From positions 96,001 through 160,000 of the IMG/VR virus record IMGVR_UViG_3300045988_180880: a DNA stretch of 64,000 bases; one strand, 5' to 3'. A program made the position numbers and the translations under genes. Each line of letters begins with the position of its first letter. Position 1 is the stretch's first letter. Source of the DNA: a virus. Below, in pieces: positions 19,143 to 63,767 of this stretch. The notes beneath the pieces are model-generated. The model worked only from the letters and a program-made list of their open reading frames with translations. It did no database searches and was not told where the DNA came from.

Positions 19143-19426
19143 AAAAGAGAACATTAATCTTCTGGGGAATTATAATTGTAGCTATAGCATATATAACGTT
19201 TGTATTTATTTTCCCAGAAAACAAAAGAACTATATTATTTGGAGGAACTATGGAAATTAAAGTAGAACCTGGCCAAAAAGTAATGATAGCTACGTTTAAA
19301 GGAAATAATTTATTTTATATGACTGAACCTATGGACTCTGGATATATACCTAAAACTAAAATCCTCCATGAAAAATCCGGCCGTGGTATAATCGAGTCTA
19401 AAGTTAAATTTGTAGAAAGAAGATGA
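19139..19426 (+). CDS. small membrane-anchored protein
   Basis: N-terminal TM segment (TLIFWGIIIVAIAYITFVFIF). ATGA overlap with the upstream gene. Confidence 0.55.
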   Translation: MKKRTLIFWGIIIVAIAYITFVFIFPENKRTILFGGTMEIKVEPGQKVMIATFKGNNLFYMTEPMDSGYIPKTKILHEKSGRGIIESKVKFVERR

Positions 19427-19827
19427 TGACGAGGTATAATAGTAGAAATCGAGTATTTAGTATAACTCTCTCCCAAGAAATAATGGAAAATTACTTAGAG
19501 AAACGTGGATATCAAATTTCTACGTTATCACAAATAGCTAAGGATTTTGGATATTCGGCCGGAAAACTTATGGAGGAGTTAAACCTATTTTCTAGTACGT
19601 TTGATTATAAAGTAGCATACCTCCAAGAAGAAAAAGAAAAAGTATATCAGAAGTTTATAAAAATTATAGAAGAACGAAGAGACAAAGAAGATACTAAATA
19701 TTCTTCTGGAGGAAAATGGTTTTGGTATAATTGTGCAGAACTTGATCTCCTTAGTTATATAGTAGACCTCAAAGCAAGAGCAATTATGAAGTCTGAATTT
19801 ATAGAACGTATTATAAATCATGATTGA
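19423..19827 (+). CDS. hypothetical protein
   Basis: 134-aa ORF, translationally coupled by an ATGA overlap. Confidence 0.5.
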   Translation: MMTRYNSRNRVFSITLSQEIMENYLEKRGYQISTLSQIAKDFGYSAGKLMEELNLFSSTFDYKVAYLQEEKEKVYQKFIKIIEERRDKEDTKYSSGGKWFWYNCAELDLLSYIVDLKARAIMKSEFIERIINHD

Positions 19828-19889
19828 AATTATAGAATTACTAACAAAACTAGAGTGTGAAATTGATTTATTAATTAAATTATTAGGAT

Positions 19890-20816
19890 ATGAACAGAAA
19901 TAAAAAAGCGTTAGTTATCTTTCATAGGGTAGATTTTGATGGAACATCCAGTATGTGTATAGCAGTAAAATCACTATACGATGAAGGGTACCAAGTAGAT
20001 AAAACCGGATATAATTATGGAGATGAAATTCCAGAAATGTATGTAGATAAGAATGGAAGACCCTATGACCTGATCTGTATGGTTGATATAAGTTTCCCTC
20101 CTGAAATTATGTTACAGGTTTGGGAACACTATGGAGATAACTTTATATTCATAGATCATCATGTATCATCCATCGAAAGTTCTATACAAAATAACTACAC
20201 CGGAATTAAAGGTATTCGTGAGATTGGACCAGCTGCTTGTGAATTAACTTGGAGATTTTTCTGTCCAGGTCAAGATATTCCAGAATTTATTCGACTTCTT
20301 GGAGTATATGATACTTGGAGAAAAGATGAAGTTGGAGAGGATGATTGGCAAGATGTAATACTTCCTTTACAGAGTGGTTTGAAATTTAAATATGGCTTAA
20401 ATCCTGATACGTGGCTCTATGAATTTCCTAATCTATGTTTCTGGGAAGATAGATTGACAGAAGTAATAGAACTTGGAACTATTCTTAAACAAAATCAGGA
20501 TAAAATTAATAAAGGAGTAGTTAAATCATTCTCATTTCCCGTTACTGTTGCTGGAAAATATAGAGGAGTTTGTGTAATAGGAACTGCATTTTCAAGTACA
20601 GTCTTTAATTCTGTCTTAAATGATTATGATATTTATATAGTATGTAATCGAAGAGATAAAGGAGTATATAGTATATCAATGTATAAAGAACCTGATCGAA
20701 TTCCAGAATTTAGTTGTGCTGGATATAGAGGCATTATTTTTGGACATAAAAGTGCTGGAGGTGGTACTTTAAACTTTGAACAATTCAAGACTTTAATAGA
20801 GGATTGTGAAATTTAA
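19890..20816 (+). CDS. DHH-DHHA1 family phosphoesterase (NrnA/RecJ-like nano-RNase or phosphodiesterase)
   Basis: DHH motifs: IFHRVDFDGTSS (I), MVDISFPP (II), FIFIDHHVSS (III, DHH). DHHA1-type motif FGHKSAGGG near the C-terminus. Confidence 0.75.
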   Translation: MNRNKKALVIFHRVDFDGTSSMCIAVKSLYDEGYQVDKTGYNYGDEIPEMYVDKNGRPYDLICMVDISFPPEIMLQVWEHYGDNFIFIDHHVSSIESSIQNNYTGIKGIREIGPAACELTWRFFCPGQDIPEFIRLLGVYDTWRKDEVGEDDWQDVILPLQSGLKFKYGLNPDTWLYEFPNLCFWEDRLTEVIELGTILKQNQDKINKGVVKSFSFPVTVAGKYRGVCVIGTAFSSTVFNSVLNDYDIYIVCNRRDKGVYSISMYKEPDRIPEFSCAGYRGIIFGHKSAGGGTLNFEQFKTLIEDCEI

Positions 20817-20826
20817 AACTTATAAG

Positions 20827-20851
20827 AACCAAGGATTTTATTTCCTTGGTT
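20827..20851 (+). terminator. intrinsic terminator hairpin
   Basis: aaccaagga-ttttatt-tccttggtt followed by tcttttttc. Confidence 0.65.
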
Positions 20852-20877
20852 TCTTTTTTCTTGATACATTTTTATGA

Positions 20878-21232: not shown

Positions 21233-23260
21233 ATGACTAAAGATAAAATTATTGTACCTAGAGGAATTAGGTATATAGGAGAGTGGAAAGATTTCTGCTT
21301 TTCTAATTTTCTAAGTAAATGTATTATTAATAAACAATTACCTGGATGTGGTTTTACTGAATACTGTATTAATGGTCCTGAGAATGTAATACTTTGTTCT
21401 CCTAGAAAAATGCTTTTAAAGAATAAATATGATCAACATAAAAATGATATTTATTTAGTAATTAATGAGATGGATAAAGATCCAGATGTGGATAAGGATA
21501 TTAGTAAGGATATTAAAAATCCTAATTTAGATGAAGATTATCAAGAAAAGAAAGATAATTCTGAGATCTATGAAAGATTATATAGAGAAATTGATACTTA
21601 TACCTATCAAAGATATCTAAATAATCAACCAGCTAAGATTCTAGTAACATATGATTCATATAGAATCGTTAAAGATATTCTTGAAAAAATTAGAATATTT
21701 GATAGGTTTATGACTATAGTAGATGAGTTTCAGAGTATTTTACACGATTCTAGATTTAAAAGCAATACTGAAATGGGATTTTTGGAATATCTTAAACAAT
21801 CCCCAACAGCATACTTTGTATCAGCTACTCCTATGATGGATGAATATCTAGAAATGTTAGATGAATTTAAGGATCTCCCATATTATGAATTAGATTGGTA
21901 TAGTTCAGATTCTAGTAGAGTAATCAAACCTTCATTAAAAGTACTTACAATGAAATCAGTAGGTACAAAAGCAGAAGAAGTAATTCAATCCTATCTATCA
22001 GGAGATTTTGAAGAAGTTGTTGTTCTTAGAGATAGTGTACCTACTAGAGTAATATCAGACGAAGCAGTATTTTATGTAAACAGTGTTAATCATATTATAT
22101 CTATCATCAAGAAAAATGAATTAACTCCAGAACAATGTAATATATTATGTAGCAATACTCCAGAAAATCTAAAGAGAATACAAAAGAAATTAGGAAAAGG
22201 TTTTACTATAGGAGAAGTACCTCTTAAAGGAGTTAAACCTAGGATGTTTACCTTTTGTACTAGAACGGTTTACTTAGGAGCAGATTTTTATAGTTTATGT
22301 GCACGTAGTTTTATATTCTCAGATTCTAATTCAGACTGTTTAGCAGTTGATATTGCAGAAGATCTTCCACAGATACTAGGTAGACAAAGGTTGTTTAGTA
22401 ATCCTTGGAACAATTCAGCAACTTTTTATTATCGTACTACAGCAGATTATAGAGAAATGAAAGAGTCTGATTTTCAGAAAATTTTAAATAAGAAAACAGA
22501 AACTACAGAAAACTTATTATCAGTATATAATAAAGGAACTGATGAAGAAAGATATGATTTAGCGAAAAATTATTTATATGTAGCTAAGTCAGCAAGTTAT
22601 AAAGATAATTATGTAGCAGTAAATAAAATAATTACCAGTACAGGTAATATTATTTTAAAACCTGTTATTAATCAGCTTGTAAAAGTTAATGAGATTCGAG
22701 CATTTAAAATTCAGCAAATTGATTATAAAGATAGATTTAGTGTATTTAGTAGTGTACACTCTAAACTTACTCCTGATGATATAGTAAATAGGGATGTAAC
22801 TAGATTTTTCTGTATTTATGATACTTATACTACAATTCATGATAAACTTAAAATGTTATGTGAATATCCTGTTTCTAGAGAAGTGATAGATATAGTTCTT
22901 GGACAAATAGCAGATTCTGATGAAGTTAAGTCTTATTATCTGTCATTAGGTCCTACTAAACTTAAAGCGTTATCATACAATTCTCATAAAATAAAGAAAG
23001 AGCTTGGAATAGTAACATTTAGTCCAGAATTACTTAATAATACAATTCATCAAAACTTTAATCCAGGAGAGAAATATACACTATCTAATCTTAAAGCAAA
23101 ACTAGGAGATTTATATTCTAGTATTTCTTATACTGCAGTGCCAAAAGCTAATGATATTTTAAATTACTTTGAGGTAAAAGAATATAAATCTACTGAGGTT
23201 GTAGATGGGGAAAAGAAAAGAGTAAGAGGATATGAACTATTAAAAAGAAAGGATAATTAA
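21233..23260 (+). CDS. SF2 helicase-like protein with atypical motif I and a C-terminal domain shared with the next gene (paralog L)
   Basis: Motifs: QLPGCGFTEY (motif I position, no Lys), IVDEFQS (II), VSATPM (III), FCTRTVYLGADF (V), QILGRQRL (VI). About 70% aa identity by eye to 47922..49964. Confidence 0.7.
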   Translation: MTKDKIIVPRGIRYIGEWKDFCFSNFLSKCIINKQLPGCGFTEYCINGPENVILCSPRKMLLKNKYDQHKNDIYLVINEMDKDPDVDKDISKDIKNPNLDEDYQEKKDNSEIYERLYREIDTYTYQRYLNNQPAKILVTYDSYRIVKDILEKIRIFDRFMTIVDEFQSILHDSRFKSNTEMGFLEYLKQSPTAYFVSATPMMDEYLEMLDEFKDLPYYELDWYSSDSSRVIKPSLKVLTMKSVGTKAEEVIQSYLSGDFEEVVVLRDSVPTRVISDEAVFYVNSVNHIISIIKKNELTPEQCNILCSNTPENLKRIQKKLGKGFTIGEVPLKGVKPRMFTFCTRTVYLGADFYSLCARSFIFSDSNSDCLAVDIAEDLPQILGRQRLFSNPWNNSATFYYRTTADYREMKESDFQKILNKKTETTENLLSVYNKGTDEERYDLAKNYLYVAKSASYKDNYVAVNKIITSTGNIILKPVINQLVKVNEIRAFKIQQIDYKDRFSVFSSVHSKLTPDDIVNRDVTRFFCIYDTYTTIHDKLKMLCEYPVSREVIDIVLGQIADSDEVKSYYLSLGPTKLKALSYNSHKIKKELGIVTFSPELLNNTIHQNFNPGEKYTLSNLKAKLGDLYSSISYTAVPKANDILNYFEVKEYKSTEVVDGEKKRVRGYELLKRKDN

Positions 23261-23262
23261 TT

Positions 23263-24294
23263 ATGATATATTTGATTAAGAGTGCAGGTTATGATGAGAA
23301 TGAAAATTTAATTCATCTTCTCAAAATAGGTTATACAGAGGATAATAATAGAGATAGAAGATTTATGTCTTACAAACTTCATAATCCTACTTGTAAAATT
23401 TTATATGAAATTCCCAGTCTTTCAGAAGATATAGAAAAGAGAATTCAATATAAGTTTAGAGATTATAAGTATAAAGAATATGGAAATGAGTGGTTTTATT
23501 ATAATGATGATGTAATAAATTTCTTTAGGGATATAGATAAAGTAGATTTGGAATCTCTTCCAAAGTCTCCTATGAGTGAAAAGAGGGATTATAAGAGATT
23601 TAGAAAAATGGTTAAAGAATTTGTTCCTTGGATTATTGCTGATATAAAGGATAGAAATGAATATGTAAAGAAGATAATAGATGAATTAGGTAGTAATTTA
23701 AATTCTATTCAGGATATATTAGATTATGTGATAAAGGATTACGGAGAGGATTCTATCTCTAAGTATCTTGAAGTTACTAAGAAAAAAGAGATGAAAGTGT
23801 ATAGTGAAGATTCAAAGATTAATAGTGAAATAATAAAGTTTATTAATACTTATGAAACTCTTACTACTATCTATGATAAACTTAAAATGTTATGTGAATA
23901 TCCAGTCTCTAAGGAAGTTATTCAGATAGTATTAGATCAAATAGCAGATAGTGATGAGATTAAGTCTTATTATTTGCTTTTAGGTCCTGATAGGTTGAAA
24001 AAATTACATTATAATATTACAAATATTAGAAGAGAATTAGGTATTGTAACCTTTAGTCCTGAATTATTAAATAATACTATTCATCAAAATTTTAATCCAG
24101 GTGAGAAGTATACATTAGCTAATTTAAAGGCTAAACTTGGAGATCTATACTCTTCTATTTCTTATACTGCAGTTCCTAAGGCCAATGATATTTTAGAGTA
24201 TTTCGAAGTAAAAGAGGTTCAAAATACTATGTTAGTAGATGGAGTAAAGAAGCGAATTCGTAGTTATGAATTATTAAAAAGAAAGGATAATTAA
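23263..24294 (+). CDS. T5orf172 (GIY-YIG-related) domain protein carrying the same C-terminal domain as the helicase-like protein
   Basis: N-terminus IYLIKSAG...LLKIGYTEDNNRDRRF...NEWFYYN matches the T5orf172 pattern. The last roughly 150 aa (TTIYDKLKMLCEYPVSKEVIQIVLDQIADSDE...YELLKRKDN) nearly repeat the C-terminus of 21233..23260. Confidence 0.7.
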   Translation: MIYLIKSAGYDENENLIHLLKIGYTEDNNRDRRFMSYKLHNPTCKILYEIPSLSEDIEKRIQYKFRDYKYKEYGNEWFYYNDDVINFFRDIDKVDLESLPKSPMSEKRDYKRFRKMVKEFVPWIIADIKDRNEYVKKIIDELGSNLNSIQDILDYVIKDYGEDSISKYLEVTKKKEMKVYSEDSKINSEIIKFINTYETLTTIYDKLKMLCEYPVSKEVIQIVLDQIADSDEIKSYYLLLGPDRLKKLHYNITNIRRELGIVTFSPELLNNTIHQNFNPGEKYTLANLKAKLGDLYSSISYTAVPKANDILEYFEVKEVQNTMLVDGVKKRIRSYELLKRKDN

Positions 24295-39217: not shown

Positions 39218-39952
39218 ATGATTATTGAAGTATTAGCACAGAAATATCGCTGTGGTTGTGAGAAAGGAATGGCTGATTTAGTTATCCCTGGAATCTTGGT
39301 AAAACTTAATGCAGTAATAGAATGGGATTTTTGCAGATTTCCAGAAGAGATTAAACACGAGAAAAAAGATCCGGCCGACGAAAACTCAGAAGAAATTGAA
39401 GTAAGAACTGAGCTTAGAGATTTCTTAGGTGAAGATCCTGAATTAAAACCTGGAAATTATTTCTTATATAAAGGTCAAGTGATAGCAGTTGATTCGGCCG
39501 ATAGATTAATTCTCGTGGTTTCTGAAACTGGTTATGGAGCTCTTGATCGAATATATGAGGAAAACTTCAAGACGGAATTCGAAATGATCTTTAATGATTA
39601 TGAGATTGAAGATGTTAAATGGGAGGTAAATGATACAGGAGAAGTTCCAACTGAATATGATGAAACCTATAAAGTACCATACAACCTCTATAATATCTGG
39701 AAAGAGAGGTTTGTCTCAGGTAGAGGATTTCTTTCCCCAGGATTATGTTTGAAAGTAGTAATGAATTCAGACAGTTTCATTATGCCTCTTGAGTTTTATA
39801 TGCTTGATTGGTCGATAAGGTATAAATCATCTCAACTTGAACCGGATGAAGTAGAGTATGCAACAAAACAACTTTTATCCTGGTTTTATGATAATTATAA
39901 AAGAGTTAAACCATTAGAAAGGAGAAAAGATGAACAAGAAGAGATCAATTGA
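39218..39952 (+). CDS. hypothetical protein
   Basis: 244-aa ORF. Contains two CGGCCG motifs (39372 and 39495). Confidence 0.5.
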   Translation: MIIEVLAQKYRCGCEKGMADLVIPGILVKLNAVIEWDFCRFPEEIKHEKKDPADENSEEIEVRTELRDFLGEDPELKPGNYFLYKGQVIAVDSADRLILVVSETGYGALDRIYEENFKTEFEMIFNDYEIEDVKWEVNDTGEVPTEYDETYKVPYNLYNIWKERFVSGRGFLSPGLCLKVVMNSDSFIMPLEFYMLDWSIRYKSSQLEPDEVEYATKQLLSWFYDNYKRVKPLERRKDEQEEIN

Positions 39953-43031: not shown

Positions 43032-43743
43032 TTTTTGTAACCCCAAAGGAACTCTCTATGTTCCTGGAGCAGAGAAAGCAACGAAAGAATTGTGTAAATG
43101 GATATCTGGGAAACGAAAAATCTTGGAAAAAATCATAGTTACACAAGATACTCATATGTCTTATCATATTGGGCATTCTATGTATTGGGAACAAACTCCT
43201 GAAGCATTTACAACTATTACTTCAGGGATGGTAAAATCGGGAAAATATACTCCAGCTTTTTATAATAAAGAAAATACTATCGCCTACCTTGAAGAATTAG
43301 AGAAGACAGGAAAAGTTCATACTATTTGGCCTGAACATTGTATCGCTGGTTCTTGGGGATGGAGTTTGCCCAAAAATCTAGTTGAGGAATTAAATTTATG
43401 GTCCCTCAGTAATCATGGCGCCGAATATGAGCTAATTCAGAAGGGAAGAAATCCACACTTAGAGATGTTTTCTGCCTTTTCTTATGCAAACGGCGCTAAA
43501 AAATCTGAGGGATATGAATTCCTAGATAAAATTGCTAGAGAAGATTATACCAAAGTTTATATAGCTGGTTTTGCAAAGGATTATTGTGTAGCAGAGTCGG
43601 TGAAAGATATGATGAAGGAACAAAGATTATCAGGAAAATTAGTGTTCCTAAATAAATGTATGGCTTCGATTGATAAAAATTCTGAATCTTTGAAAGTATA
43701 TGAAGATGCTGTTAAAGATTTCGGTGCGATAATCGAAGAATAA
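42982..43743 (+). CDS. pncA: nicotinamidase / isochorismatase-family hydrolase
   Basis: LLLIIDPQYDFCNPKGTLYVPGA (catalytic Asp region). WPEHCIAGSWGW (nicotinamidase-type WPxHC). YIAGFAKDYCVAES (catalytic Cys). Confidence 0.8.
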   Translation: MEEKEKSLLLIIDPQYDFCNPKGTLYVPGAEKATKELCKWISGKRKILEKIIVTQDTHMSYHIGHSMYWEQTPEAFTTITSGMVKSGKYTPAFYNKENTIAYLEELEKTGKVHTIWPEHCIAGSWGWSLPKNLVEELNLWSLSNHGAEYELIQKGRNPHLEMFSAFSYANGAKKSEGYEFLDKIAREDYTKVYIAGFAKDYCVAESVKDMMKEQRLSGKLVFLNKCMASIDKNSESLKVYEDAVKDFGAIIEE

Positions 43744-43813: not shown

Positions 43814-45976
43814 TTATTCGCCGATAATATCAAGTATTTTCACATAATTCTTTGATATATCTTCAAATAATATTTTTTCTTTTACTTCTATATCTGGATC
43901 ATCCGGTAATATTTCTACAACTTCAGCACCTCTAGATTCATAATGTTGCTTAATGATATCATAAGATGAGTATTTTTCTTGTTTAGAGAAAAAGTTAACT
44001 ATTGCTTTCTGTAAGGAATAATTATCTTTATTATTAACTGGAAGTCCGGAAGTCTCACAATCTAAGAGAATCATTTCTCTATTTTCGATATCAATCATCA
44101 TTGCTGCTATCGAATCAGTCTTAGATGTAACGGGAACTGTTAATTCAACCTTTTGCGGATGCCAAGTTTTATCACCTTCCTGTAATTTTTCTCTAGTACA
44201 ATACCCCAACCATACAGGAAGAGTATCCATTCCTCGACCTTTATAATTGCAAACATCCATCACCACATATTTATATCCATTCTTTTTGCACTTATCTAGA
44301 TCAACGTCTACATACTCTGCACAATCTCCTGGACGGTTTAATACATCACCAGAATGAACAGCAACATTAGAATTAAGTGAAGTATTCCATCCTATATTGC
44401 TAATATCATCATTAGACTTATATAAGAATGCATGAAGATCTAAGTCTTCATCTCTATCTTTCTGAATCCAATGAACAAAAAACCTAACAATATTTCCAGA
44501 GATTTTATATCTTGTTCCTTTGGGGATAGATACATTTTGATTTCTCATACCCTTCGGAATAGGTATTCTCTTAATTTCTGGATCGATATATACAATCTCG
44601 TTTACTAAATCTTTCTCAGTAATTCTAGAATCTATGTTGAGAAATATTTTTCGAATTATATTATCTTTTATAGTTTCTAAGAATCCAGGGTTAATTGGTT
44701 TTAATCCATCTAGTATATATAAACCTTTTCCAGGAATATTTACCACTCTAGGAGTACTTTCTGATTGATCTCTTATATCGTAGTAGCTAAGAATTTCTAA
44801 GAGTGTTTTATTTTTCATCCCTGAAGTATTTATAAAGATATCCATTATATCAGATTCTTTACCTTCTTCAAGAGCTCTTCTTAAGAGAGAATCAAATTTT
44901 CTAATAAATTCCCCTGGATGAGTAGAAATAAATTTAGCTATTTCTAGAATATCTTTACCAGTATCATACATATTCTGTACTTGAGAATTAAATGTACGAT
45001 ATTCTTTTGATAAACCCTTACTCTTAAGTTTTACAAAGAAATCAGCACACTCAGGATAATTTACTACATATTCCTTCGGATGTACACGTTCTGATAGTAA
45101 TATCCAATGTCCATAGAAAAGTTTTGCATCTCGTATACAGTTTTCTACTCCTTTAGCCTCAATTATTTTTTCTATTCTTCCACAAATTTCTCTACGTTTT
45201 GATCTAGGAAGAGTATCTAATTTTCTCCATTCAGAATTATCAGTTTTTTTATTAGACCAAGAGCTAACTTGTATTTTCTTTGGAACATGTGGAAGACTTG
45301 GATCAGCTCCCATTAAGTACAAACTATATCTCAGAACATCATTAATCTCGGCAATTTTATATTCCGGCCGATGTTTAGCTACTATACACATTGTTTCTTT
45401 AAATGGTATACGTTCTGGGATGCTAAGTTCTGGATAATTCTCTAAGAACCATGCCAACTCTTCCCTAGTTTCTCCTGTTAGTGAATTTCCGGCCGACATC
45501 ATTTGCCGAGGAATATCCATAAATTCAGAAGGAGTCATAATCTTAAGCTGTCGATCTGGCTCTTCATCAATTATTTCCTTCTCTTCTTTAGTTGTCCAAG
45601 GATTATCTCTTAGAAATCCTTCAAGATCACCAGAATAAACTCTTTTTTGATCTAACCACAATTCCGATTTATCCTTAGAAATTACTTGTTCTGGAAATCC
45701 TGGATACAAAGGTTTAAACTTTTCCCCAGAATGATACAATTCGTGGATGTATGGAAGTAGATTTGTATGGAGATTTTCCATATCACTAATCGTCATCCTA
45801 CATATTACTTCGGGAGAAAGAAAATATCTATATCTCTTTAATTCTTGAAGAAGTGAGATTAATACTCTCTTACTCTTTTCCTCCATGTTTCTAGGATCTA
45901 CTAACTCCTTGCTCTCTACTAATACGCATCCTCTATGAAATGCAATAATTTCCTTGTTTAATTTCATTTCTGCCAT
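43814..45976 (-). CDS. large protein with C-terminal TerD-like beta-sandwich domain
   Basis: 720 aa. Residues around 490-600, VRFFVHWIQKDRDEDLDLHAFLY...VAVHSGDVLNRPGDCAEYVDVDLDKCKKNGYKYVVMDVCNY, fit the TerD pattern (DLDL...HSGD...E.i.vdL). The N-terminal 480 aa are unrecognised. Confidence 0.55.
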   Translation of the reverse strand: MAEMKLNKEIIAFHRGCVLVESKELVDPRNMEEKSKRVLISLLQELKRYRYFLSPEVICRMTISDMENLHTNLLPYIHELYHSGEKFKPLYPGFPEQVISKDKSELWLDQKRVYSGDLEGFLRDNPWTTKEEKEIIDEEPDRQLKIMTPSEFMDIPRQMMSAGNSLTGETREELAWFLENYPELSIPERIPFKETMCIVAKHRPEYKIAEINDVLRYSLYLMGADPSLPHVPKKIQVSSWSNKKTDNSEWRKLDTLPRSKRREICGRIEKIIEAKGVENCIRDAKLFYGHWILLSERVHPKEYVVNYPECADFFVKLKSKGLSKEYRTFNSQVQNMYDTGKDILEIAKFISTHPGEFIRKFDSLLRRALEEGKESDIMDIFINTSGMKNKTLLEILSYYDIRDQSESTPRVVNIPGKGLYILDGLKPINPGFLETIKDNIIRKIFLNIDSRITEKDLVNEIVYIDPEIKRIPIPKGMRNQNVSIPKGTRYKISGNIVRFFVHWIQKDRDEDLDLHAFLYKSNDDISNIGWNTSLNSNVAVHSGDVLNRPGDCAEYVDVDLDKCKKNGYKYVVMDVCNYKGRGMDTLPVWLGYCTREKLQEGDKTWHPQKVELTVPVTSKTDSIAAMMIDIENREMILLDCETSGLPVNNKDNYSLQKAIVNFFSKQEKYSSYDIIKQHYESRGAEVVEILPDDPDIEVKEKILFEDISKNYVKILDIIGE

Positions 45977-50512: not shown

Positions 50513-50539
50513 TGAAAAAATATTACAAAAAATATAAAA

Positions 50540-50580: not shown

Positions 50581-50594
50581 TTTTATATTTTTTA

Positions 50595-51759: not shown

Positions 51760-51856
51760 CAAGAAAAATATTAGAAAAATTTTATAAAGTAAAATTTATG
51801 AATTGATTTTAATATTTTTCTTTTTGTTTATCCATTAATTTATATTAAAATCTATT

Positions 51857-52371: not shown

Positions 52372-52974
52372 TACTATAAGAATATAGAGGATATTTGGAC
52401 CAGATTTGTTAAAGAGGATCTGGGTATTGAGAGATATGACGACAATCTTCATGTTGAGATTTCTGCAGTTAAAAGTATTATCCCTAAATCTACTTCAGAA
52501 TATGCATGTTTATACTTAACTGAATCTACTTTTAACGTAAGACTTGATCAAGAAGACAAACCTAAACGTATTTTCTTGGGAGGTACTTGTGGTGGATCGG
52601 CCTGGAGAGATGAATTAATTCCAGAACTTGATAGACTCGGATTTGAATATTTTAATCCCGTTGTACCTGATTGGACTCCTGAATGTATAGAAAAAGAAAA
52701 CATCGAAAAATCCGAACTTTGTAATACACATCTCTATATCATAACCCCGGAGATGAGTGGTGTATATAGTATAGCAGAGATGGTTAATTCAGTTTGGGAA
52801 TGTTTATCAAAGGGATCTGGTTTTGTATGGATTGGAATTCTCGAAAGTGAATCTTGGGAACCTCATCAACTCAAATCACTTCAAGCAACTCTCGATCTAA
52901 TTAACAATATCGCCGATGGAAATAGTAGAATTAGAGCAAAGCTTATAAAAGAATCTAAAGAAATATTAACGTGA
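52372..52974 (+). CDS. rusA: RusA-like exon 2 continuing without a stop into a nucleoside 2-deoxyribosyltransferase-like domain
   Basis: The spliced junction DTSN|YYKNIEDIW matches E. coli RusA DLDNLQKAAFDAL, and ...YDDNLHVEISAVK...LYLTE matches LDDAQVV..VVK...LTITE. The frame then continues (STFNVRLDQEDKPKRIFLGGTCGGSAWRDEL...YSIAEM) with no in-frame ATG; the track uses the TTG at 52576. Confidence 0.6.
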   Translation, partial: YYKNIEDIWTRFVKEDLGIERYDDNLHVEISAVKSIIPKSTSEYACLYLTESTFNVRLDQEDKPKRIFLGGTCGGSAWRDELIPELDRLGFEYFNPVVPDWTPECIEKENIEKSELCNTHLYIITPEMSGVYSIAEMVNSVWECLSKGSGFVWIGILESESWEPHQLKSLQATLDLINNIADGNSRIRAKLIKESKEILT

Positions 52975-53921
52975 TGAGAGTAAAAAGAAATAATATTGTA
53001 GCAGTAAGAGTTTTTACTGGCAGAGATTTAATTGAAAAACTATACTCTGAAGGTTGGGAAGTAGAACAACGAGAATATGGATTACTTTCTGGAGTAAAAA
53101 AGTTATCAAAAGGAGCAATTAATGCTATTAGTGATTTAGGAGATAATTTAATAGTAAAGCCGATTAGTAGGTCGAAAATGGGAAAGAAAATTATCGATAA
53201 AACGCAAGATTCTATTGAAGATTCGTTAGATAAAAGAATTAAATTGGATAGAGAGATTAAGGAATTAGATAAATCCATTAAAGATCTATCTTTATCTAAT
53301 GAAGATTCAGCAAAATCTATCAAAAATAATTTAAAAAATGAAGCTGCTAAAAATAAAGCATATATACTTGAAGATAAAAGCAATACTTCAGGAAAATCTT
53401 TTGAAAATGGAACTATTGATATAAGAAATCCAGAAATAAAGAAAGCTGTTAGAAAAAAGCTTAAATTCGATGGTCGAAAAGATATGGAACATTTTAATAA
53501 TAGTAATGATTTAATTTTATTTAAAGAATCTTCAGGTAATCCAGCTTTAGCTCATGAGATTGGACATGTAATAAATAGAAATTCTAAAGGAAAGGCCGCA
53601 AAAATAGATAGAGAGGCTGAAAATATAATAGAAGAATTTCATAAACCAGCAGATTCTCCAGGAGGAAGAGATAATTCTAAAGGTCTGTGGAAATCAGTAA
53701 AAAGATTTTTCAAAGGTAAGAAAGTAGTAAATAATGAAAAGAATGCCTCTGAAAATGCTATTAAGCTATTGAAGGAATCTGGAGCAAGTGAGAATGAACT
53801 GAAACTTGCAAAAGAGAGTTTAGATAAATCCCTGGAGAGTTACAAAGAAGAACATAAAATGTATTATAAGTCTCCATTTATTAATAAACTTCAATCATTT
53901 AGGAAAAATAAGGAGAAATAA
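52971..53921 (+). CDS. putative zinc metallopeptidase (HExxH) with coiled-coil N-terminal half
   Basis: ALAHEIGHVINR is an HExxH motif. The first half is K/E-rich and predicted helical. Confidence 0.45.
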   Translation: MMRVKRNNIVAVRVFTGRDLIEKLYSEGWEVEQREYGLLSGVKKLSKGAINAISDLGDNLIVKPISRSKMGKKIIDKTQDSIEDSLDKRIKLDREIKELDKSIKDLSLSNEDSAKSIKNNLKNEAAKNKAYILEDKSNTSGKSFENGTIDIRNPEIKKAVRKKLKFDGRKDMEHFNNSNDLILFKESSGNPALAHEIGHVINRNSKGKAAKIDREAENIIEEFHKPADSPGGRDNSKGLWKSVKRFFKGKKVVNNEKNASENAIKLLKESGASENELKLAKESLDKSLESYKEEHKMYYKSPFINKLQSFRKNKEK

Positions 53922-53923
53922 TC

Positions 53924-54538
53924 ATGTTTGGTTGGAAAAGAAAGAAGGAAAAGGATCTAATGTATCAATCTTTGGAAGAGGAAATTAGATTCATCGGAAA
54001 AGATCTTGGAATTTATAACTATGGAGACTATAAGGTAGAAACATCTTATAAAGAAGCTACTGAGTTTGAAGATTTATTAAAGGAAGTTAGACATAAATTT
54101 TTCTATCTTGAAGAAAAATATAAAAACTATGAATTAAGTATATCACTTAGATCTTATTCATCCGCTAATCTTGTAGATTTAGATGAAATAGAGAATCGAA
54201 TTTTGAAAGATCATGAAGCAAGAGATATTTTTCTAGACTATATTGGGAGATATAAAAATAATGAGTTAAAATTAATGGATATAAATTTTAACTTACTATA
54301 TGATTTATCTATGAGATATGCTTATGATGTATTAAGGGCGTTAAACAGAATTGCAGAATCTGATTCAGATAAACTAATATTGTCAGATTGGGAAGAAAAT
54401 TTATCTCGTGTTGTAAAAAAACCTTATTATTATTCAAGTAATTATAGTGCAGAGGATCTTATGCCATATCTAGGACCTTACTTCATTGATCAAGAAGCAA
54501 GAGATTCGTTATATGAGTTTATTAGATGTAGAAGATAA
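53924..54538 (+). CDS. hypothetical protein
   Basis: 204-aa ORF with aaggag upstream of the ATG. Confidence 0.5.
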   Translation: MFGWKRKKEKDLMYQSLEEEIRFIGKDLGIYNYGDYKVETSYKEATEFEDLLKEVRHKFFYLEEKYKNYELSISLRSYSSANLVDLDEIENRILKDHEARDIFLDYIGRYKNNELKLMDINFNLLYDLSMRYAYDVLRALNRIAESDSDKLILSDWEENLSRVVKKPYYYSSNYSAEDLMPYLGPYFIDQEARDSLYEFIRCRR

Positions 54539-55132: not shown

Positions 55133-55732
55133 ATGACAAAAATATTATTAATACCAGCGCATCATAAAACTACTCCAGGAAAAAGAAGTCCTGATGGGAT
55201 TTTACGAGAGTATTCTTATTCTCGAGAAATTATTAGTGAGATGATAGAAAGATTGGGAGGCTTAGGATATGAAGCTATTAATCCTATACCTGAAACAGAA
55301 AAAGAATTATCTCTTAGTGAACAATGTAGAATAATTAATAAAATCTACGATGAATGTTCTGGGGATTGCTTCTGTATTTCGCCTCACTTAAATGCAGCAG
55401 GAAATGGTTCTGAATGGATGAATGCTAAAGGATGGAGTGCGTTTATTTATAGAGGAGCTGGACAGAAAACAAAAGAACTTGCTGGATGTTTAACGAAAGC
55501 GGCTGAAAAAGAAGGGATTAGAGTGCGTTATGAGTATCCTGGAGTTCCTTATTGGACTAGTGGATTTTATATTTGTAAGAACACTAAACCAAGTACAGTT
55601 TTGACAGAAAATCTCTTCCAAGATAACCGCGAAGATGTGGATTTCTTGTTATCAACCGAAGGAAAAGAAGCAATAGTTAATCTTCATGTCCAAGGAATTT
55701 TAGATTATATAAGTAAAATAAAAGAACAATGA
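55133..55732 (+). CDS. N-acetylmuramoyl-L-alanine amidase (Amidase_3-type endolysin)
   Basis: ILLIPAHHKTTPGKRSP...REYSYSREI...CISPHLNAAGNG...TENLFQDN fits the Zn-amidase_3 pattern (H...E...H). Confidence 0.75.
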   Translation: MTKILLIPAHHKTTPGKRSPDGILREYSYSREIISEMIERLGGLGYEAINPIPETEKELSLSEQCRIINKIYDECSGDCFCISPHLNAAGNGSEWMNAKGWSAFIYRGAGQKTKELAGCLTKAAEKEGIRVRYEYPGVPYWTSGFYICKNTKPSTVLTENLFQDNREDVDFLLSTEGKEAIVNLHVQGILDYISKIKEQ

Positions 55733-56739
55733 AATTATATAGTAAAACAGATTACATTGAGTATAAAACAAATCCACAGCCAGGAGATTACTTGGGGAAA
55801 ATCTTATCTGAATGTTTTGAAAATTTTTTAGAATCAGATAAGGAAGTTAGAGTATCAATCTTAGAAAATATACTTAAATACAAACTAACCCTAGAAGATA
55901 TGACTGAGGATTATCAAGCATGTTCAGTAGTATTATCTAAAAATTTTGATGAGATAACATATTCTTGGATAGCTGAACAGTTTGGATATACTCTCATCTC
56001 AAATCCTAGAAAAATCACAACGCCTGGAACACTTCTTGGATTTGAACTAGATATTGCTCATGGAAATTTACTGCCTGAAGAGAGTTATACTGGGGAATAC
56101 CTAAGTTGTGCCTATGAATCTTTAAGACGTAGGTTAATTATGAACTCTATAGGATGGGGTTGTACAGTGAGCAAGGAATTAGAGGATGCTAAGAAATGTA
56201 TGGAAAAGCGAATGAAAGTTTTTGAGAGATATTTTAGTGGGAATATTAAGTTTCCAGTATTTTCTCAACCTTTTATGAACTCTTCTTGGGATCCTGACTT
56301 CTATGGATTTTGTTATGGAGATGGAACTTACGGCGAATGGAACTACTCTTGGGCCGGCTTTATCGGGAGAGAATATCATGATTGGACAAGAGAAGATCAG
56401 ATTTATTTCTCATGTCTCTACGAAGCCACTGATCAATATTTGGAACATCATTTAAATATGCTCCCGACAATGATACGGCCCGAACTTTTATACTTCGCCG
56501 ATCTAAGTCTCTATTGTGGATGTTCTGGAATATGGGCATTTATGAATAGAGATATTTCTGGAGATGAAAAGAACTCCGAATTAAATAAACTTTACACCAG
56601 ATTAACAGCTCTAGGAAAAATTGAAGGAGCTGGAATGGAAGTATATAAAGAAATGGCAGAATCTTTAGGAAAACATGCTGCCAATTATTATGACCTAGAT
56701 GAGATACAGGAAATAATAGGTTATAGAATTTATTTGTAA
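55729..56739 (+). CDS. hypothetical protein
   Basis: 336-aa ORF with an ATGA overlap with the amidase gene. Confidence 0.55.
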   Translation: MKLYSKTDYIEYKTNPQPGDYLGKILSECFENFLESDKEVRVSILENILKYKLTLEDMTEDYQACSVVLSKNFDEITYSWIAEQFGYTLISNPRKITTPGTLLGFELDIAHGNLLPEESYTGEYLSCAYESLRRRLIMNSIGWGCTVSKELEDAKKCMEKRMKVFERYFSGNIKFPVFSQPFMNSSWDPDFYGFCYGDGTYGEWNYSWAGFIGREYHDWTREDQIYFSCLYEATDQYLEHHLNMLPTMIRPELLYFADLSLYCGCSGIWAFMNRDISGDEKNSELNKLYTRLTALGKIEGAGMEVYKEMAESLGKHAANYYDLDEIQEIIGYRIYL

Positions 56740-57278: not shown

Positions 57279-57881
57279 ATGGCAAAAAAGAAAGAAAATA
57301 ATATAAATCACTTAGAGACATTTTACTTCTCAGATATTCCAACTCAACCTTATCCGGTGTATTCAATATCAGAATCTGGAAACTTATACTCTCTGAAAAA
57401 TATAGTATATCCAGGAAAATCAGCTAAAAAATTTACTCGTGCAAAACAATTAAAATGGAGATCTCAACAAGCTAGATTAGTAGATTTCTTAATAAACATA
57501 GATTATTTTTATCCATTAACTGTTTATAGGGAATTTCTAGTACCTATTCAAAATTCTCTTAGACTTCCTGGCATTTCTGGAGGTTTTTTCTTATTGGATT
57601 TTTATTTTTATGAATTATCCTTAGCATTAGAGTTGGATTCTGACTATCATAATCTAGACGCCGATAACCTTAGGGACGAATACTTGGAACAGCTTGGAAT
57701 AGAAGTCTTCAGAATATATAACTTAGAGAAAATTACAACACAGAAGGGTAAGTTTAAAGAATTTATAGCTCTTCTCAAATCTAAAGTTCCTGTTCAAAAT
57801 CCACGTCCCTTTGATTTCCTCGGCGACTTAAGAAAAAGAGAACAGGGAGGAGATAGTTCAGGGTTATGGAAAATCGATTAA
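57279..57881 (+). CDS. free-standing endonuclease-like protein with DUF559/Vsr-like PD-(D/E)xK domain
   Basis: FFLLDFYFYELSLALELDSDYHNLDADNLRDEYLEQLGIEVFRIYNLE is a strong DUF559-type pattern. Confidence 0.65.
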   Translation: MAKKKENNINHLETFYFSDIPTQPYPVYSISESGNLYSLKNIVYPGKSAKKFTRAKQLKWRSQQARLVDFLINIDYFYPLTVYREFLVPIQNSLRLPGISGGFFLLDFYFYELSLALELDSDYHNLDADNLRDEYLEQLGIEVFRIYNLEKITTQKGKFKEFIALLKSKVPVQNPRPFDFLGDLRKREQGGDSSGLWKID

Positions 57882-58618: not shown

Positions 58619-59194
58619 ATGGAACAAATTAGTAATAATGTAATGGTACTGAATGTAGGAGATCAGATTCCTCCAGGTACCGAGGATGCACTAAAAATAC
58701 TATTGTTAGGTAGTATTGACTTAGGTCCTACAGGCGAGATGAATTGGCAGTCCAAATTTGTAGCTGGATTAGCTAATGCAGTAGATCCACAAAAAGGATT
58801 AATGAATCTATTTACAAAATATAATTACATAATTCTTAATAACTGGTATTCCCCACAAAACAAAGAAGCTAGTATTTTTAATCAAGAAATGGCTAATAAG
58901 TTTCAGTGGGAAAGAATGGCAATGGCTGCTGCAGACTGCATCTTTATAAACTTCTTGGGGAGATCTCAGAGTCCTATTCCTCTTTATCAGTTGGGATATT
59001 TAAATAATTCATCTAAACTTATCGTAAGATGTCCAGAGAATTATAAATACTATTCTTTAGTTAGAATGGCTTGTGATGCTAGTTCAGTTCCTCTAGTTGG
59101 TAGTAAGATGGGAACTGTAAATCAAATTCTTAGTCTTATGTTTAGTTTTATCCCTAAATTTCAAGAAGTAGGAAAAAATACATTACCAGAATAA
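58619..59194 (+). CDS. nucleoside 2-deoxyribosyltransferase-like (Rossmannoid) protein
   Basis: KILLLGSIDLG...NWQSKFVAGL...WERMAMAAADCIFINFLGRSQSPIPLYQLGYL resembles the NDT-like/DUF4406 layout. Weak call. Confidence 0.4.
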   Translation: MEQISNNVMVLNVGDQIPPGTEDALKILLLGSIDLGPTGEMNWQSKFVAGLANAVDPQKGLMNLFTKYNYIILNNWYSPQNKEASIFNQEMANKFQWERMAMAAADCIFINFLGRSQSPIPLYQLGYLNNSSKLIVRCPENYKYYSLVRMACDASSVPLVGSKMGTVNQILSLMFSFIPKFQEVGKNTLPE

Positions 59195-61607: not shown

Positions 61608-61621
61608 TTAAAAAACAATGA

Positions 61622-61647
61622 ATACTAGGAGGGAAACCTCTTAGTAT
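61622..61647 (+). terminator. intrinsic terminator hairpin
   Basis: atactaggagg-gaaa-cctcttagtat followed by tttttatc. Confidence 0.6.
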
Positions 61648-61663
61648 TTTTTATCAAAGAATT

Positions 61664-62836
61664 ATGAGTAAAAAATGGTTACATGGAGCTATACCTGCTC
61701 TACTAATTCATGGCTGTATAGGAACTGTTTATTGTTGGTCCTTGTTGTATGATTATATAAAAGAATCTATTACTGGTAATTGTACTTGGGCATTTTCCTT
61801 AGCCATATTTTTCTTAGGGATTTCTGCAGCTTTTTTCGGTCCCTTAGTAGAAAAGAATGTAAAGAAAGCTGCAACTATAAGTTCTATCCTCTTTGGTTCG
61901 GGAATGATCTTATCTGGAGTAGCATGTTATATAAATTCTATGCCACTTCTTTATCTTAGTTATGGAGCAATTATGGGTACTGGAGTTGGAATTGGATATA
62001 TCACTCCAGTAAAAACTCTAATGATGTGGTTCAAGAATAATAAAGGTCTTGCTACTGGACTTGCTATTATGGGATTTGGATTAGCGAAAGTAATAGCAAC
62101 ACCTCTTCTTAATTGGAGTATAGAAAGATGTGGAATATACTGTACTTTCTTCTCTTTTGGGGTTTGGTATACTTTGATTATGTTACTTGCTGCAATACTT
62201 CTTAAAAAACCAATAGAAGAAGGAAAAATAGAGAATACATCAAGACCCAAATTTAAATCACTTAAGGAATGGTTTGATAGGAAAAAACAACTCCTAAATC
62301 TACCAGCAATTACTACTATATGGTTGATTTTTTATTTAAATATCTCTTCTGGATTAGCAATTATAAGTTATGAGAAATATTACTATGAAACAGCTGGAAT
62401 TGGAATAGTTCTAGGATTAGTATTTTCAGCTATTTTTAATTCTCTAGGTCGTTTTGGAGTTGCTTGGTGGTCTGATTATTTTAAAAATCGTGGAAAACTT
62501 TTTGGAATAATCTTAACATTCTCTGTTCTTTCGGGAATTACAGCTTTTATGGCTCCAGGTTTTATTCCAGTAGCTGTACTTTTATGTAATGCTGGGTATG
62601 GGGCAATGTTTTCAATAATGCCTTCTGTTCTAGCTGATAGGTATGGAATGAAAGACGTATCTGAGATTCATGGATTAATACTTAGTGCTTGGGCTTTTGC
62701 TGGTCTTTCTGGAAATCAGTTTGCTAATCTTTTAGTAGGTATTCCAGAGAGTTCATATAAAACATTAATTCTTGGAAGTGTTGGGTTATATTGTATTGCT
62801 CTATCTTTAAGTGCTAAATTGTGGAATAAAGACTAA
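61664..62836 (+). CDS. MFS transporter (oxalate/formate antiporter-like family by N-terminal pattern)
   Basis: 390 aa with about 12 hydrophobic helices in a 6+6 arrangement and a central basic loop (KKPIEEGKIENTSRPKFKSLKEWFDRKKQ). The N-terminus WLHGAIPALLIHGCIGTVYCWSLL is typical of OFA-type MFS proteins. Confidence 0.7.
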   Translation: MSKKWLHGAIPALLIHGCIGTVYCWSLLYDYIKESITGNCTWAFSLAIFFLGISAAFFGPLVEKNVKKAATISSILFGSGMILSGVACYINSMPLLYLSYGAIMGTGVGIGYITPVKTLMMWFKNNKGLATGLAIMGFGLAKVIATPLLNWSIERCGIYCTFFSFGVWYTLIMLLAAILLKKPIEEGKIENTSRPKFKSLKEWFDRKKQLLNLPAITTIWLIFYLNISSGLAIISYEKYYYETAGIGIVLGLVFSAIFNSLGRFGVAWWSDYFKNRGKLFGIILTFSVLSGITAFMAPGFIPVAVLLCNAGYGAMFSIMPSVLADRYGMKDVSEIHGLILSAWAFAGLSGNQFANLLVGIPESSYKTLILGSVGLYCIALSLSAKLWNKD

Positions 62837-62869
62837 AAACCTTATATATGATATAATAAATAAGAAGTT

Positions 62870-63109
62870 ATGAAAAGTAATAGAGCGTTTGAAATTTTAT
62901 CTACATTAAGCTATGAACCGTGTTATTGTGAAGTAGATGAATCTATAATTGATTATAGTAATGCAGTTAGAGCAGTAGAAGAGGCTGAAAATGAAGTAAT
63001 AGATCTGCTTAAGGAAAGTATATTAGCGAAATTTCAAAATGGGTCTACAAAAGATACTATAAAGATTATACTTGAAGAAACTATAAAAGAGTTTAAGGAT
63101 GAAAAGTAA
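62870..63109 (+). CDS. hypothetical protein
   Basis: 79-aa ORF downstream of an aaaaaccttatatatg promoter motif. Confidence 0.5.
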   Translation: MKSNRAFEILSTLSYEPCYCEVDESIIDYSNAVRAVEEAENEVIDLLKESILAKFQNGSTKDTIKIILEETIKEFKDEK

Positions 63110-63767
63110 AGAAGGAGATAAATATTTAGGAAAACACCTGAATAGTATAAATGACTTATTAGAAGAAGGTCATGATCCGAAAGTTAGAGATTTGGTAGTT
63201 TATGAAGATGCAAAAATACTATCTGATATTTCTTATTTTGAGGGTTATGATGCTGGGGTGTCGGATGAAAGAAATAAGGAAGATTATGAAGTATGGATGG
63301 TCGAGTTATTCAAGAAAATCGCTGTAGATGGATTACCAAAAGAATATAAAGGCGGCCATTCTAAGATATGTGTTTGTTTTGTTCCGGCCGTTAATGGAGA
63401 ACTTGACAGATATGTTATTGGATACTATAATTATAAAAAGAAAGGTTGGATGACTTGTTTATGTGAAGGATGTCAAGAATGTTTCCGGCCGACTCATTAT
63501 CTAGAACTTCCGGCCGCTCATAAAATCAGAAAAGAATATGATGTAACTGGGCAAACTAGATCAACAAATTCATTTCCTGAAGTTCCTGATGGTGTATATC
63601 AAGGAAAATTCGGTGGACATGTTGGAATGATAGAGTATTTAGGAAAGGTCTATAACTTCACATTCTTAAAAGGTATCGTTCAAGAAAATATTCCAAAAAC
63701 AATAACAGTAATAGATGGATATGGATGGACTCTACTAAAAGATGGACCGATTGTACCAACCGTTTGA
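63099..63767 (+). CDS. hypothetical Cys-rich protein
   Basis: 222-aa ORF. Contains three CCGGCCG motifs (63384, 63485, 63510). Confidence 0.5.
   Translation: MKSKEGDKYLGKHLNSINDLLEEGHDPKVRDLVVYEDAKILSDISYFEGYDAGVSDERNKEDYEVWMVELFKKIAVDGLPKEYKGGHSKICVCFVPAVNGELDRYVIGYYNYKKKGWMTCLCEGCQECFRPTHYLELPAAHKIRKEYDVTGQTRSTNSFPEVPDGVYQGKFGGHVGMIEYLGKVYNFTFLKGIVQENIPKTITVIDGYGWTLLKDGPIVPTV

Follow-up and report, generated by a model that had tools for sequence, protein, structure and literature searches.

Why should ordinary protein-coding genes of a phage whose DNA is only 29-30% G+C carry repeated copies of the all-G/C word CGGCCG, and carry them in pairs? The question is raised by a 64,000-nucleotide stretch of the IMG/VR record IMGVR_UViG_3300045988_180880 (positions 96,001 to 160,000 of that record), here called the window, in whose own numbering coordinates are given. 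An earlier inspection of the letters and open reading frames (ORFs) of this stretch, hereafter the sequence-only reading, had taken the word for a selected nucleic-acid signal, probably polar and acting at the DNA level, and had listed protein binding or looping, packaging or replication, modification or nicking, and long-range mRNA pairing as possible roles. The last of these is the one that fits the evidence reported here, and we tentatively interpret the CGGCCG sites as the GC-rich clamps of clade-specific long-range stems that lie within genes and are read most plausibly in mRNA, an interpretation that we hold at a little less than an even chance.

The window is part of the genome of an uncultured gut jumbo phage of about 375 kb, as follows from the existence of some 19 nearly identical IMG/VR contigs (up to 377,817 bp) together with the lack of a close cultured relative: megablast of the window against phage records returned no match, and tblastn gave matches below 26% identity only. 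A more distant genome, IMGVR_UViG_3300045988_180056 (hereafter 180056), shares 75-82% protein identity with the window phage. The genes of the window lie in long same-strand blocks.

The CGGCCG word and its reverse-complementary partners

CGGCCG begins at exactly the nine positions that had been given for it (19378, 19556, 39372, 39495, 45365, 45490, 63385, 63486 and 63511), which form four clusters, and eight of the nine sites extend to CCGGCCG or CGGCCGG. The earlier expectation of less than one copy is borne out by dinucleotide-preserving shuffles of the window, which contain a mean of 0.19 copies and at most 2. The 8-mer TCCGGCCG has seven plus-strand copies and one minus-strand copy, as against a zero-order expectation of 0.034 per strand, and exact matches of the 10-mer TTCCGGCCGA number three and one, respectively. 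A more stringent null, in which protein and codon usage were kept and synonymous codons permuted in 1000 shuffles, leaves the excess in place, with 0.33 CGGCCG (maximum 3) and 0.056 TCCGGCCG expected for the 9 and 8 observed. The over-representation of the word is thus real and highly significant.

All nine sites fall inside ORFs, where each of the three phases is represented, and they encode the peptides previously listed for them, with codons that are rare in the window (CGG provides 1.7% of Arg, CCG 9.4% of Pro and GCC 8.1% of Ala codons). Since the excess goes beyond a codon-aware null, uses rare codons and appears in varied frames, it points to selection or a directional process on nucleotides, and the contention that the nucleic-acid word and not the peptide is selected is upheld. 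Pairs of rare-codon pauses were considered as the unit concerned and rejected, as they leave the reverse complementarity described below unexplained.

The proposed strand bias fared less well. Within the window seven of the eight asymmetric copies do read in the plus-strand direction; outside it the orientation flips, the next sites, approximately 5 and 7.6 kb downstream of the last cluster, having the opposite orientation, as does a site that other strains carry at the window equivalent of about 55.9 kb. Relative to the host gene, TCCGGCCG is sense in 12 cases and antisense in 10, so that the idea of a polar, strand-biased DNA signal has to be given up. A polar word of the Chi or KOPS type was rejected on the same counts and because orientation switches several times within about 75 kb. 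The spacings reported for the window (178, 123, 125, 101 and 25 bp) are correct, the further value of 126 bp being the distance from the first to the third site of the last cluster. Across all lineages, however, the unique spacings are 25, 101, 107, 107, 108, 109, 118, 123, 125, 126, 126, 129, 178 and 213 bp; this variation, with no helical phasing, does not support the suggestion that 125 bp represents 12 helical turns for cooperative protein binding.

The turning point of the analysis was a list of all G/C-only runs of at least five bases in the window, in which runs other than CGGCCG also proved to have reverse-complementary partners, some 55-180 nt away (Table 1). Some of these pairs are nested, 56331/56496 enclosing 56351/56476, and 63352/63512 enclosing the CGGCCG pair 63385/63486. 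Amongst non-self-complementary words outside the main motif there are 8-9 inverted but only 0-1 direct pairs, and all GC runs of at least five bases together form 15 inverted pairs, compared with 1.46 (maximum 8 in 500) when runs are kept and their positions randomised. Two pairs that had been noted as degenerate versions of the motif, 1968/2073 in groEL and 56352/56477, are indeed present; both are mutually complementary GC pairs and belong to elements E1 and E9, respectively, the clamps of E9 being complementary to each other without being self-complementary. The notion of one specific word accordingly gives way to at least six different clamp words, including GGGCCG/CGGCCC and GCGCCG/CGGCGC, that share one paired geometry and are always mutual reverse complements. 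CGGCCG is the commonest of them, as would follow from its being self-complementary, so that one word serves both arms; for the same reason it would come in pairs, its apparent spacing being the length of a loop.

The complementarity extends beyond the clamps. A second perfect complementary block of 7-8 bp is found within 35 nt of the clamp in all eleven window elements (E1 to E11, Table 1), whilst a length of 7 bp is attained in only about 15% of non-cognate combinations (8% in the outer and 7% in the inner flank). In most elements the two blocks are in register, their offsets on the two arms agreeing within one position in eight elements (8/8, 8/8, 7/6, 6/6, 6/6, 8/9, 8/8 and 13/12) and being less symmetric in three (10/7, 8/10 and 11/8). 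A typical arm is therefore of about 20-24 nt, in which 6-8 non-complementary positions separate a perfect block of 7-8 bp from a GC-rich one of 6-8 bp. A scan made blind, for pairs of perfect blocks whose register differs by no more than two positions and which have 7 or more G/C, recovers seven strict elements from the window (E1 to E7, with arms of 21-23 nt), as opposed to 0.17 in codon-shuffled controls, and just two of the seven contain CGGCCG. Ten of the eleven elements fall within one ORF, the exception being E5, which spans the junction of two overlapping ORFs. Sense-strand folding of the elements gives z below -2 for eight of eleven relative to dinucleotide shuffles, with values down to -5.5.

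These observations bear directly on the possibility that TCCGGCCG is a duplex-DNA site for a binding, modifying, nicking or restriction-type protein, paired cooperatively by looping. The 8-mer is asymmetric and strongly enriched; C at position -1 or G at +6 accompanies 16 of 23 phase-1 sites, where amino-acid usage predicts about 0.34; most clusters are co-oriented; and the window encodes nucleases of uncertain specificity (a DUF559 protein, a PD-(D/E)XK-like protein and an HNH endonuclease). Against this, unrelated words share the paired geometry, invariably with the reverse complement as partner; GGGCCG/CGGCCC would escape a reader of CGGCCG and yet is paired; the word is present in only two of the seven strict elements; and, besides the lack of helical phasing, the co-orientation of TCCGGCCG within clusters (4 direct versus 2 inverted) is not significant at cluster level. 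We consider a duplex-DNA site quite improbable.

Other perfect inverted 9-mers occur in ORFs at separations of 58-153 nt (TCATAGGGT, TACGTCCAG, TGATGCAGT, TCTTCCACA and AGTCTCCAT, located at 19922-20069, 30147-30213, 34947-35038, 45176-45297 and 53869-54030). They have no GC-only clamp, and may be further, weaker members of the same class of stems.

Table 1. Paired elements E1 to E11, GC-only inverted pairs and the clamp codons of the 720-amino-acid (720-aa) gene, in window coordinates. Blocks or helices are written left arm/right arm; z refers to folding energy relative to shuffles.
Feature	Position	Host gene or lineage	Arms; loop or separation	Blocks, helices or codons	Further details
E1	1968..2076	groEL (822-2441, minus)	1968-1988, 2056-2076; loop 67 nt	GGCCGG(A)/(T)CCGGCC; 8x8 mismatched positions; TGGCTGA/TCAGCCA	Sense-strand minimum free energy z = -2.96
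E2	2326..2416	First 40 codons of groEL	2326-2347, 2395-2416; loop 47 nt	ACGGCTTT/AAAGCCGT; 8x8 mismatched positions; GGCCGA/TCGGCC	z = -2.3 sense, -3.7 antisense
E3	6652..6795	Helicase-like ORF 6414-7514 (minus)	6652-6672, 6776-6795; loop 103 nt	AGTGCTCT/AGAGCACT; 7x6 mismatched positions; (T)GCGGCG/CGCCGC(A)	Arm duplex dG -38 kcal/mol; z = -4.19
E4	11910..12060	ORF 11195-12439 (minus)	11910-11930, 12040-12060; loop 109 nt	CCGCCGAA/TTCGGCGG; 6x6 mismatched positions; AAAGCCA/TGGCTTT	
E5	19362..19577	ORFs 19139-19426 and 19423-19827	19362-19383, 19556-19577; loop 172 nt	TCCTCCAT/ATGGAGGA; 6x6 mismatched positions; TCCGGCCG/CGGCCGGA (8 bp)	CGGCCG sites 19378, 19556; loop includes stop codon of first and start codon of second ORF; z = -4.02
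E6	39356..39517	ORF 39218-39952 (plus)	39356-39378, 39494-39517; loop 115 nt	CACGAGAA/TTCTCGTG; 8x9 mismatched positions; CGGCCGA/TCGGCCG	CGGCCG sites 39372, 39495; z = -3.25; interior not hypervariable (17 strains)
E7	43402..43512	Isochorismatase-like ORF 42982-43743 (plus)	43402-43423, 43491-43512; loop 67 nt	TCCCTCAG/CTGAGGGA; 8x8 mismatched positions; GCGCCG/CGGCGC	CGGCCG absent; z = -5.48
E8	45347..45510	720-aa ORF 43814-45976 (minus)		Outer CTCGGCAA (45347-45354)/TTGCCGAG (45503-45510); inner CGGCCG/CGGCCG	CGGCCG sites 45365, 45490
E9	56331..56500	ORF 55729-56739 (plus)		CGGCGAA (56331)/TTCGCCG (56494); GGGCCG (56351)/CGGCCC (56476); TCGGGAG (56363)/CTCCCGA (56461)	Three nested helices
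E10	57659..57825	DUF559 ORF 57279-57881 (plus)		CGCCG (57659)/CGGCG (57821); AGGGACG (57672)/CGTCCCT (57804)	
E11	63352..63517	ORF 63099-63767 (plus)		Outer GCGGCC (63352)/GGCCGC (63512); middle CGGCCG (63385)/CGGCCG (63486); inner CTTGACA (63402)/TGTCAAG (63471)	CGGCCG sites 63385, 63486, 63511; 63486 and 63511 can also pair mutually (19-nt loop)
GC pair	1968/2071		103 nt	GGCCGG/CCGGCC	
GC pair	2342/2396		54 nt	GGCCG/CGGCC	
GC pair	6667/6776		109 nt	GCGGCG/CGCCGC	
GC pair	11910/12055		145 nt	CCGCCG/CGGCGG	
GC pair	43418/43491		73 nt	GCGCCG/CGGCGC	
GC pair	56331/56496		165 nt	CGGCG/CGCCG	
GC pair	56351/56476		125 nt	GGGCCG/CGGCCC	
GC pair	57659/57821		162 nt	CGCCG/CGGCG	
GC pair	63352/63512		160 nt	GCGGCC/GGCCGC	
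Clamp position A, 720-aa gene		Main lineage		TCG GCC GGA	
Clamp position B, 720-aa gene		L016, L158, L175		ACG GCC GAA	
Clamp position C, 720-aa gene		All lineages but L175		CGG CCG GAA	

Distribution and evolution of the arms

The elements are restricted to one clade. Applied elsewhere, the blind scan detects nine elements in clade relatives (138 kb), but none in outgroup phages (87 kb; identity of the 720-aa protein 47-59%) or in AT-rich loci of unrelated jumbo phages (131 kb). In three outgroup loci with a total of about 66 kb CGGCCG itself does not occur, and a fourth contains one unpaired site. A scan of viral contigs for the pair pattern was saturated by chance matches in GC-rich phages, and its AT-rich matches were same-clade loci only. 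A packaging or replication motif common to the phage family is not supported by so narrow a distribution.

Within this clade the arms lie on conserved protein sequence without insertion; for the 720-aa protein, 24 homologues are colinear, down to 38% identity. Compared with the outgroups, arms differ by substitutions only, which introduce rare codons and a few conservative replacements, and some of the arm-building changes replace amino acids (K to R, E to G). These facts, together with the absence of any similarity among the interiors of different elements, make it extremely improbable that old miniature mobile elements, inserted in frame in the manner of Rickettsia palindromic elements (RPEs) or Correia-type units, left the pairs as their terminal inverted repeats. 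Such an origin would suit the size of the elements (90-215 bp) and their inverted ends of about 20 nt, and GC-rich ends in an AT-rich genome resemble the GC clusters of mitochondria; however, the interiors are dissimilar between copies, the host proteins are conserved, with no length difference from homologues to about 40% identity, GroEL included, and the arms arose through point changes in existing codons. Mobile elements of the miniature inverted-repeat, RPE and Correia kinds were rejected for want of a common interior and of any insertion relative to homologues.

Individual elements have followed different courses. At the clamp positions of the 720-aa gene, where the outgroups have AGA CCA, ACA AAA and similar codons and pairing is absent, the clade lineages place their clamps at differing positions (Table 1), and the outer helix varies as well, being CTCGGCAA/TTGCCGAG in the window, CCGCCGG/CGGCG in L158 and L176, and CTTCCGG/CCGGGAAG in L016. 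In this rewired gene all eight arm codons are variable, as against 74% elsewhere. E7, on the other hand, has both arms invariant in four lineages, and in an unbiased sliding window its left arm is the gene's minimum of synonymous variability, with none of nine arm codons varying compared with 51% elsewhere. The inner helix of E9 is kept in the main lineage, 180056 and L176, and its outer helix in the main lineage results from two synonymous A-to-C changes (GGA to GGC and GCA to GCC), which fall one on each arm and each repair a mismatch. For E10, 180056 has the left arm and lacks the right (AAACCT and CTAGAAG); the right arm was remade in the main lineage as two separate blocks, between which the spacer is identical. 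Both helices of E5 are specific to the main lineage, neither being present in 180056.

Such in-register Watson-Crick blocks might be the functionless by-product of templated mutagenesis (quasi-palindrome correction or template switching) in the clade, filtered by purifying selection on proteins. Multi-nucleotide changes in one arm whilst the other is ancestral, as at E10, would be expected of this process, as would the confinement of the feature to one clade and the fast turnover in the 720-aa gene. Templated copying cannot, however, build both arms from AT-rich ancestral codons, and the paired blocks have a G+C content of about 55-100% in a genome of 29%. Nor does it fit well with the two changed blocks of E10 around an identical spacer, the invariance of synonymous sites of E7 across four lineages, or the uniform arm length of the seven strict elements. 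The making of GC-only words from AT-rich codons on both arms argues instead for selection for helix stability, as opposed to neutral copying, and we regard a purely mutational origin as improbable. Vsr-type mismatch-repair drive, suggested by the DUF559 gene, was also considered and rejected, since many of the site-creating changes are transversions and such drive would not yield complementary pairs of different words.

Inverted repeats within genes that flank 50-170 bp might also delimit intragenic invertons that recode the protein, or mark tracts of targeted hypermutation. Inversion would introduce one to five stop codons into the interior in 12 of 14 tested cases, and approximately 18 strains are all colinear with no inverted or hypervariable version, leaving this reading with next to no probability. 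The stretches between paired sites are not hypervariable in 17-18 strains; boundaries of hypervariable, diversity-generating-retroelement-like or recombination-patch regions were rejected as an explanation on finding no raised diversity there.

Single sites turn over quickly. The three CGGCCG copies of ORF 63099-63767 are all absent from the 180056 orthologue, and one gene has one site in most main-lineage strains, three in 180056 and none in the window strain. An isolated case is a divergent patch of about 190 bp at approximately 55770-55960 (gene 55729-56739), which distinguishes the window strain from otherwise near-identical strains. Some 20 other loci have a CGGCCG site that the patch removes, and by its appearance the patch was acquired from a distant relative through a short recombination event. 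In one outgroup relative the ribonucleotide reductase large subunit is encoded in four ORFs, probably broken by introns or inteins, and the GC-rich inverted pairs of outgroup locus L159 fall in the broken ribonucleotide reductase region.

Proposed pairing in RNA or DNA, and comparison with known systems

With every element situated in an ORF, the obvious candidate for the molecule in which the arms meet is the transcript. When the region is single-stranded, most plausibly as mRNA, the arms would pair and so close the loop with an irregular duplex of about 22 positions, and selection would act on this pairing, neither on the word nor on the peptide. A double-strand-specific factor would then read the duplex, whose length and central internal loop would fit a substrate of RNase III, and a reader of that type might process or stabilise the mRNA at the site. 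An idealised RNase III substrate is of 22 bp, or two turns of A-form helix, and internal loops in such substrates lead to single-strand cleavage, which can leave stabilising 3' hairpins (PMC3867540); in Escherichia coli many RNase III sites lie within coding sequences (PMC6212723). In silico, the strict arms agree with the expected size of about 22 bp with an internal loop allowed. Cleavage by RNase III would be expected to leave 2-nt 3' overhangs or one nick in the internal loop, and for the E. coli enzyme there are known rules on antideterminant base pairs in the proximal and distal boxes of a substrate. We place the case for RNA as the acting molecule at about evens, and consider RNase III or another double-stranded RNA-binding factor a rather doubtful candidate for the reader.

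The main rival is that the same stems act in DNA, as hairpins in single-stranded DNA of the lagging-strand template or of recombination intermediates, or as bubbles that the paired arms lock open in supercoiled AT-rich DNA. A structure-specific protein of replication or recombination could use such structures for loading, priming or cleavage. Structure-defined single-strand signals without a sequence consensus do exist, as in plasmid ssi sites, integron attC sites and the attP hairpin of CTX-phi, and the phage family has its own helicase, primase and type II topoisomerase genes. Several properties of the stems speak for DNA or count against our preferred reading: the two strands fold alike (mean z of -2.7 sense and -2.6 antisense), the blocks are pure Watson-Crick, with G.U pairs only slightly more frequent on the sense strand (12.4% versus 7.1%), and the elements have no fixed relation to the gene strand. 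Further points weigh against our preferred reading. CGGCCG cognate arms are just about 4 kcal/mol better than non-cognate ones (p = 0.0095), several CGGCCG pairs in relatives have no strong second block, and pairing by itself gives no reason for a preference for CGGCCG, often as CCGGCCG, amongst clamps. PDB sequence searches with two large proteins and PHROG scans gave nothing useful by way of an RNase III or other reader gene, or of markers of nucleus-forming phages. Moreover, ribosomes would open stems with loops of 50-170 nt in a translated ORF, so that transcription would have to outrun translation.

DNA-level pairing nevertheless meets difficulties of its own. Loops of 47-172 nt and central mismatches would make extrusion from duplex DNA costly, helices of 6-8 bp would be melted by SSB-type proteins, and some 11 elements per 64 kb exceed the need for any known origin or priming signal; all the elements are moreover in presumably transcribed ORFs, where RNA folds without special conditions. 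Weighing these points, we judge DNA stems to be unlikely. As a further conjecture, to which we assign perhaps one chance in several, a narrow clade of human-associated jumbo phages may carry uniform, structure-defined cis-elements throughout its genes, with a dedicated reader gained or retuned in the clade ancestor. Such a reader could be a nuclease or binding protein specific for double-stranded RNA, by which the fate of mRNAs made ahead of the ribosomes would be determined, or else a DNA enzyme that recognises structure.

Features of the proposed mRNA stems recur in several known systems, none of which they match in full. In rRNA operons, distant arms that bracket the 16S and 23S rRNAs pair to form the substrate of a double-strand-specific nuclease, and the distant complementary arms are a point in common; rRNA stems, however, bracket stable RNAs and are few per genome, whereas the present elements bracket translated sequence. 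The HIV RRE, the picornavirus cre and the long-range interactions of MS2 and Q-beta are structures within ORFs that are kept at synonymous sites, and resemble the stems in being superimposed on coding sequence and maintained at such sites; unlike these few, elaborate elements of RNA viruses, those found here are many, simple and uniform, and belong to a double-stranded DNA phage. RacA ram, Noc NBS, ParB parS, MatP matS, Chi and KOPS are over-represented short intragenic words, some of them GC-rich palindromes, but each is one fixed word of duplex DNA, in contrast to several unrelated complementary words without polarity. RPEs, for their part, occur in frame in ORFs, and the Correia (CREE), ERIC, RUP and RPE families resemble our elements as units of 100-160 bp with inverted ends. 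Correia elements are also transcribed and bound or cut by RNase III (PMC2649163). All four families are multi-copy and mobile, with conserved interiors, and were inserted, whereas the present elements are unique sequences that evolved in place.

There is a likeness, too, to the RNase III signals of phage mRNAs (the T7 early region, lambda sib and the N leader) and to the intragenic RNase III sites of E. coli. These are likewise irregular duplexes of some two A-form turns (22 bp) around a central internal loop; they are defined by structure without a sequence consensus and can lie in coding sequences (PMC3867540, PMC6212723). Known phage RNase III sites are nevertheless local intergenic hairpins, whereas the arms described here lie 47-172 nt apart inside ORFs and consist of GC clamps on conserved protein sequence, at about one element per 6 kb of a 29% G+C genome. 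We found no literature precedent for the word, for intragenic phage motifs or for coding-region stems in AT-rich phages, and the searchable literature contains no description that we could find of clade-specific, GC-clamped, in-register, long-range intragenic stems.

If stems are what is selected, the striking word with its strand bias and recurring spacing would be the visible part of a structural code, and chromatin immunoprecipitation or methylome mapping centred on the motif would probably find nothing. A double-stranded DNA phage can, it appears, hold dense, selected nucleic-acid structures in ordinary genes (groEL, helicase and metabolic genes), built with rare codons and even amino-acid replacements, and synonymous recoding of these phages would not be neutral in the regions concerned. 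Some stems keep their synonymous sites, others have been rewired at a divergence of a few percent, and the nearest outgroups have none of the set. The on/off contrast amongst close relatives offers a handle on the reader factor and on what changed in the clade ancestor. Intragenic mRNA structure as a control of expression in phages whose transcription is uncoupled from translation also becomes testable; should uniform cis-elements and a dedicated reader exist, they would constitute a hitherto undescribed regulatory or defence-evasion layer in double-stranded DNA phages.

Other features of the window

Recognisable genes of the window encode GroES and GroEL, HNH and LAGLIDADG endonucleases, a helicase, a KilA-N protein, ThyX, an IF-1 homologue (36788-37069), NAD synthase, an amidase, two nucleoside-deoxyribosyltransferase-like proteins and a DUF559 protein; many ORFs are without matches. 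No tRNA or tmRNA gene was found in the window, and Rfam covariance models gave no match at gathering score anywhere in it. The GroES/GroEL pair lies within 822-2708, groEL carrying both E1 and E2. The nucleoside 2-deoxyribosyltransferase-like genes (52576-52974 and 58619-59194) and the DUF559 gene (57279-57881), whose product has a Vsr-like endonuclease fold, may hint at DNA base modification or mismatch-type nicking.

Several genes show signs of interruption or mobility. A minus-strand ORF for a LAGLIDADG endonuclease with a helix-turn-helix domain (7713-8516) lies between the helicase-like ORFs 6414-7514 and 8534-8947, and the helicase gene (6414-8947) thus looks to have been split by a homing-endonuclease insertion. 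ThyX is encoded by two minus-strand ORFs (14136-14597 and 13441-13962) with a gap of about 170 bp, and may be an intron-interrupted or split gene. The stretch 50000-52000 forms an island of approximately 25% G+C, which may be a mobile nuclease cassette. It includes a PD-(D/E)XK-like ORF (50595-51443), whose N-terminal part gives a weak PvuRts1I-like match, together with long inverted repeats of AT-rich sequence such as 50520-50549/50571-50600, which are 90% complementary. An IS607/IS605-like pair of resolvase and OrfB/TnpB is present in outgroup relatives, one of which also has the broken ribonucleotide reductase gene described above; the stretches concerned are L160, 19499-21320, and L159, 14411-17813. 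Finally, two paralogues of 675 and 680 aa, for which no family match was found, are encoded on opposite strands at 21233-24294 and 47922-49964, and their common C-terminal module also terminates the adjoining T5orf172/GIY-YIG-like ORF 23263-24294.

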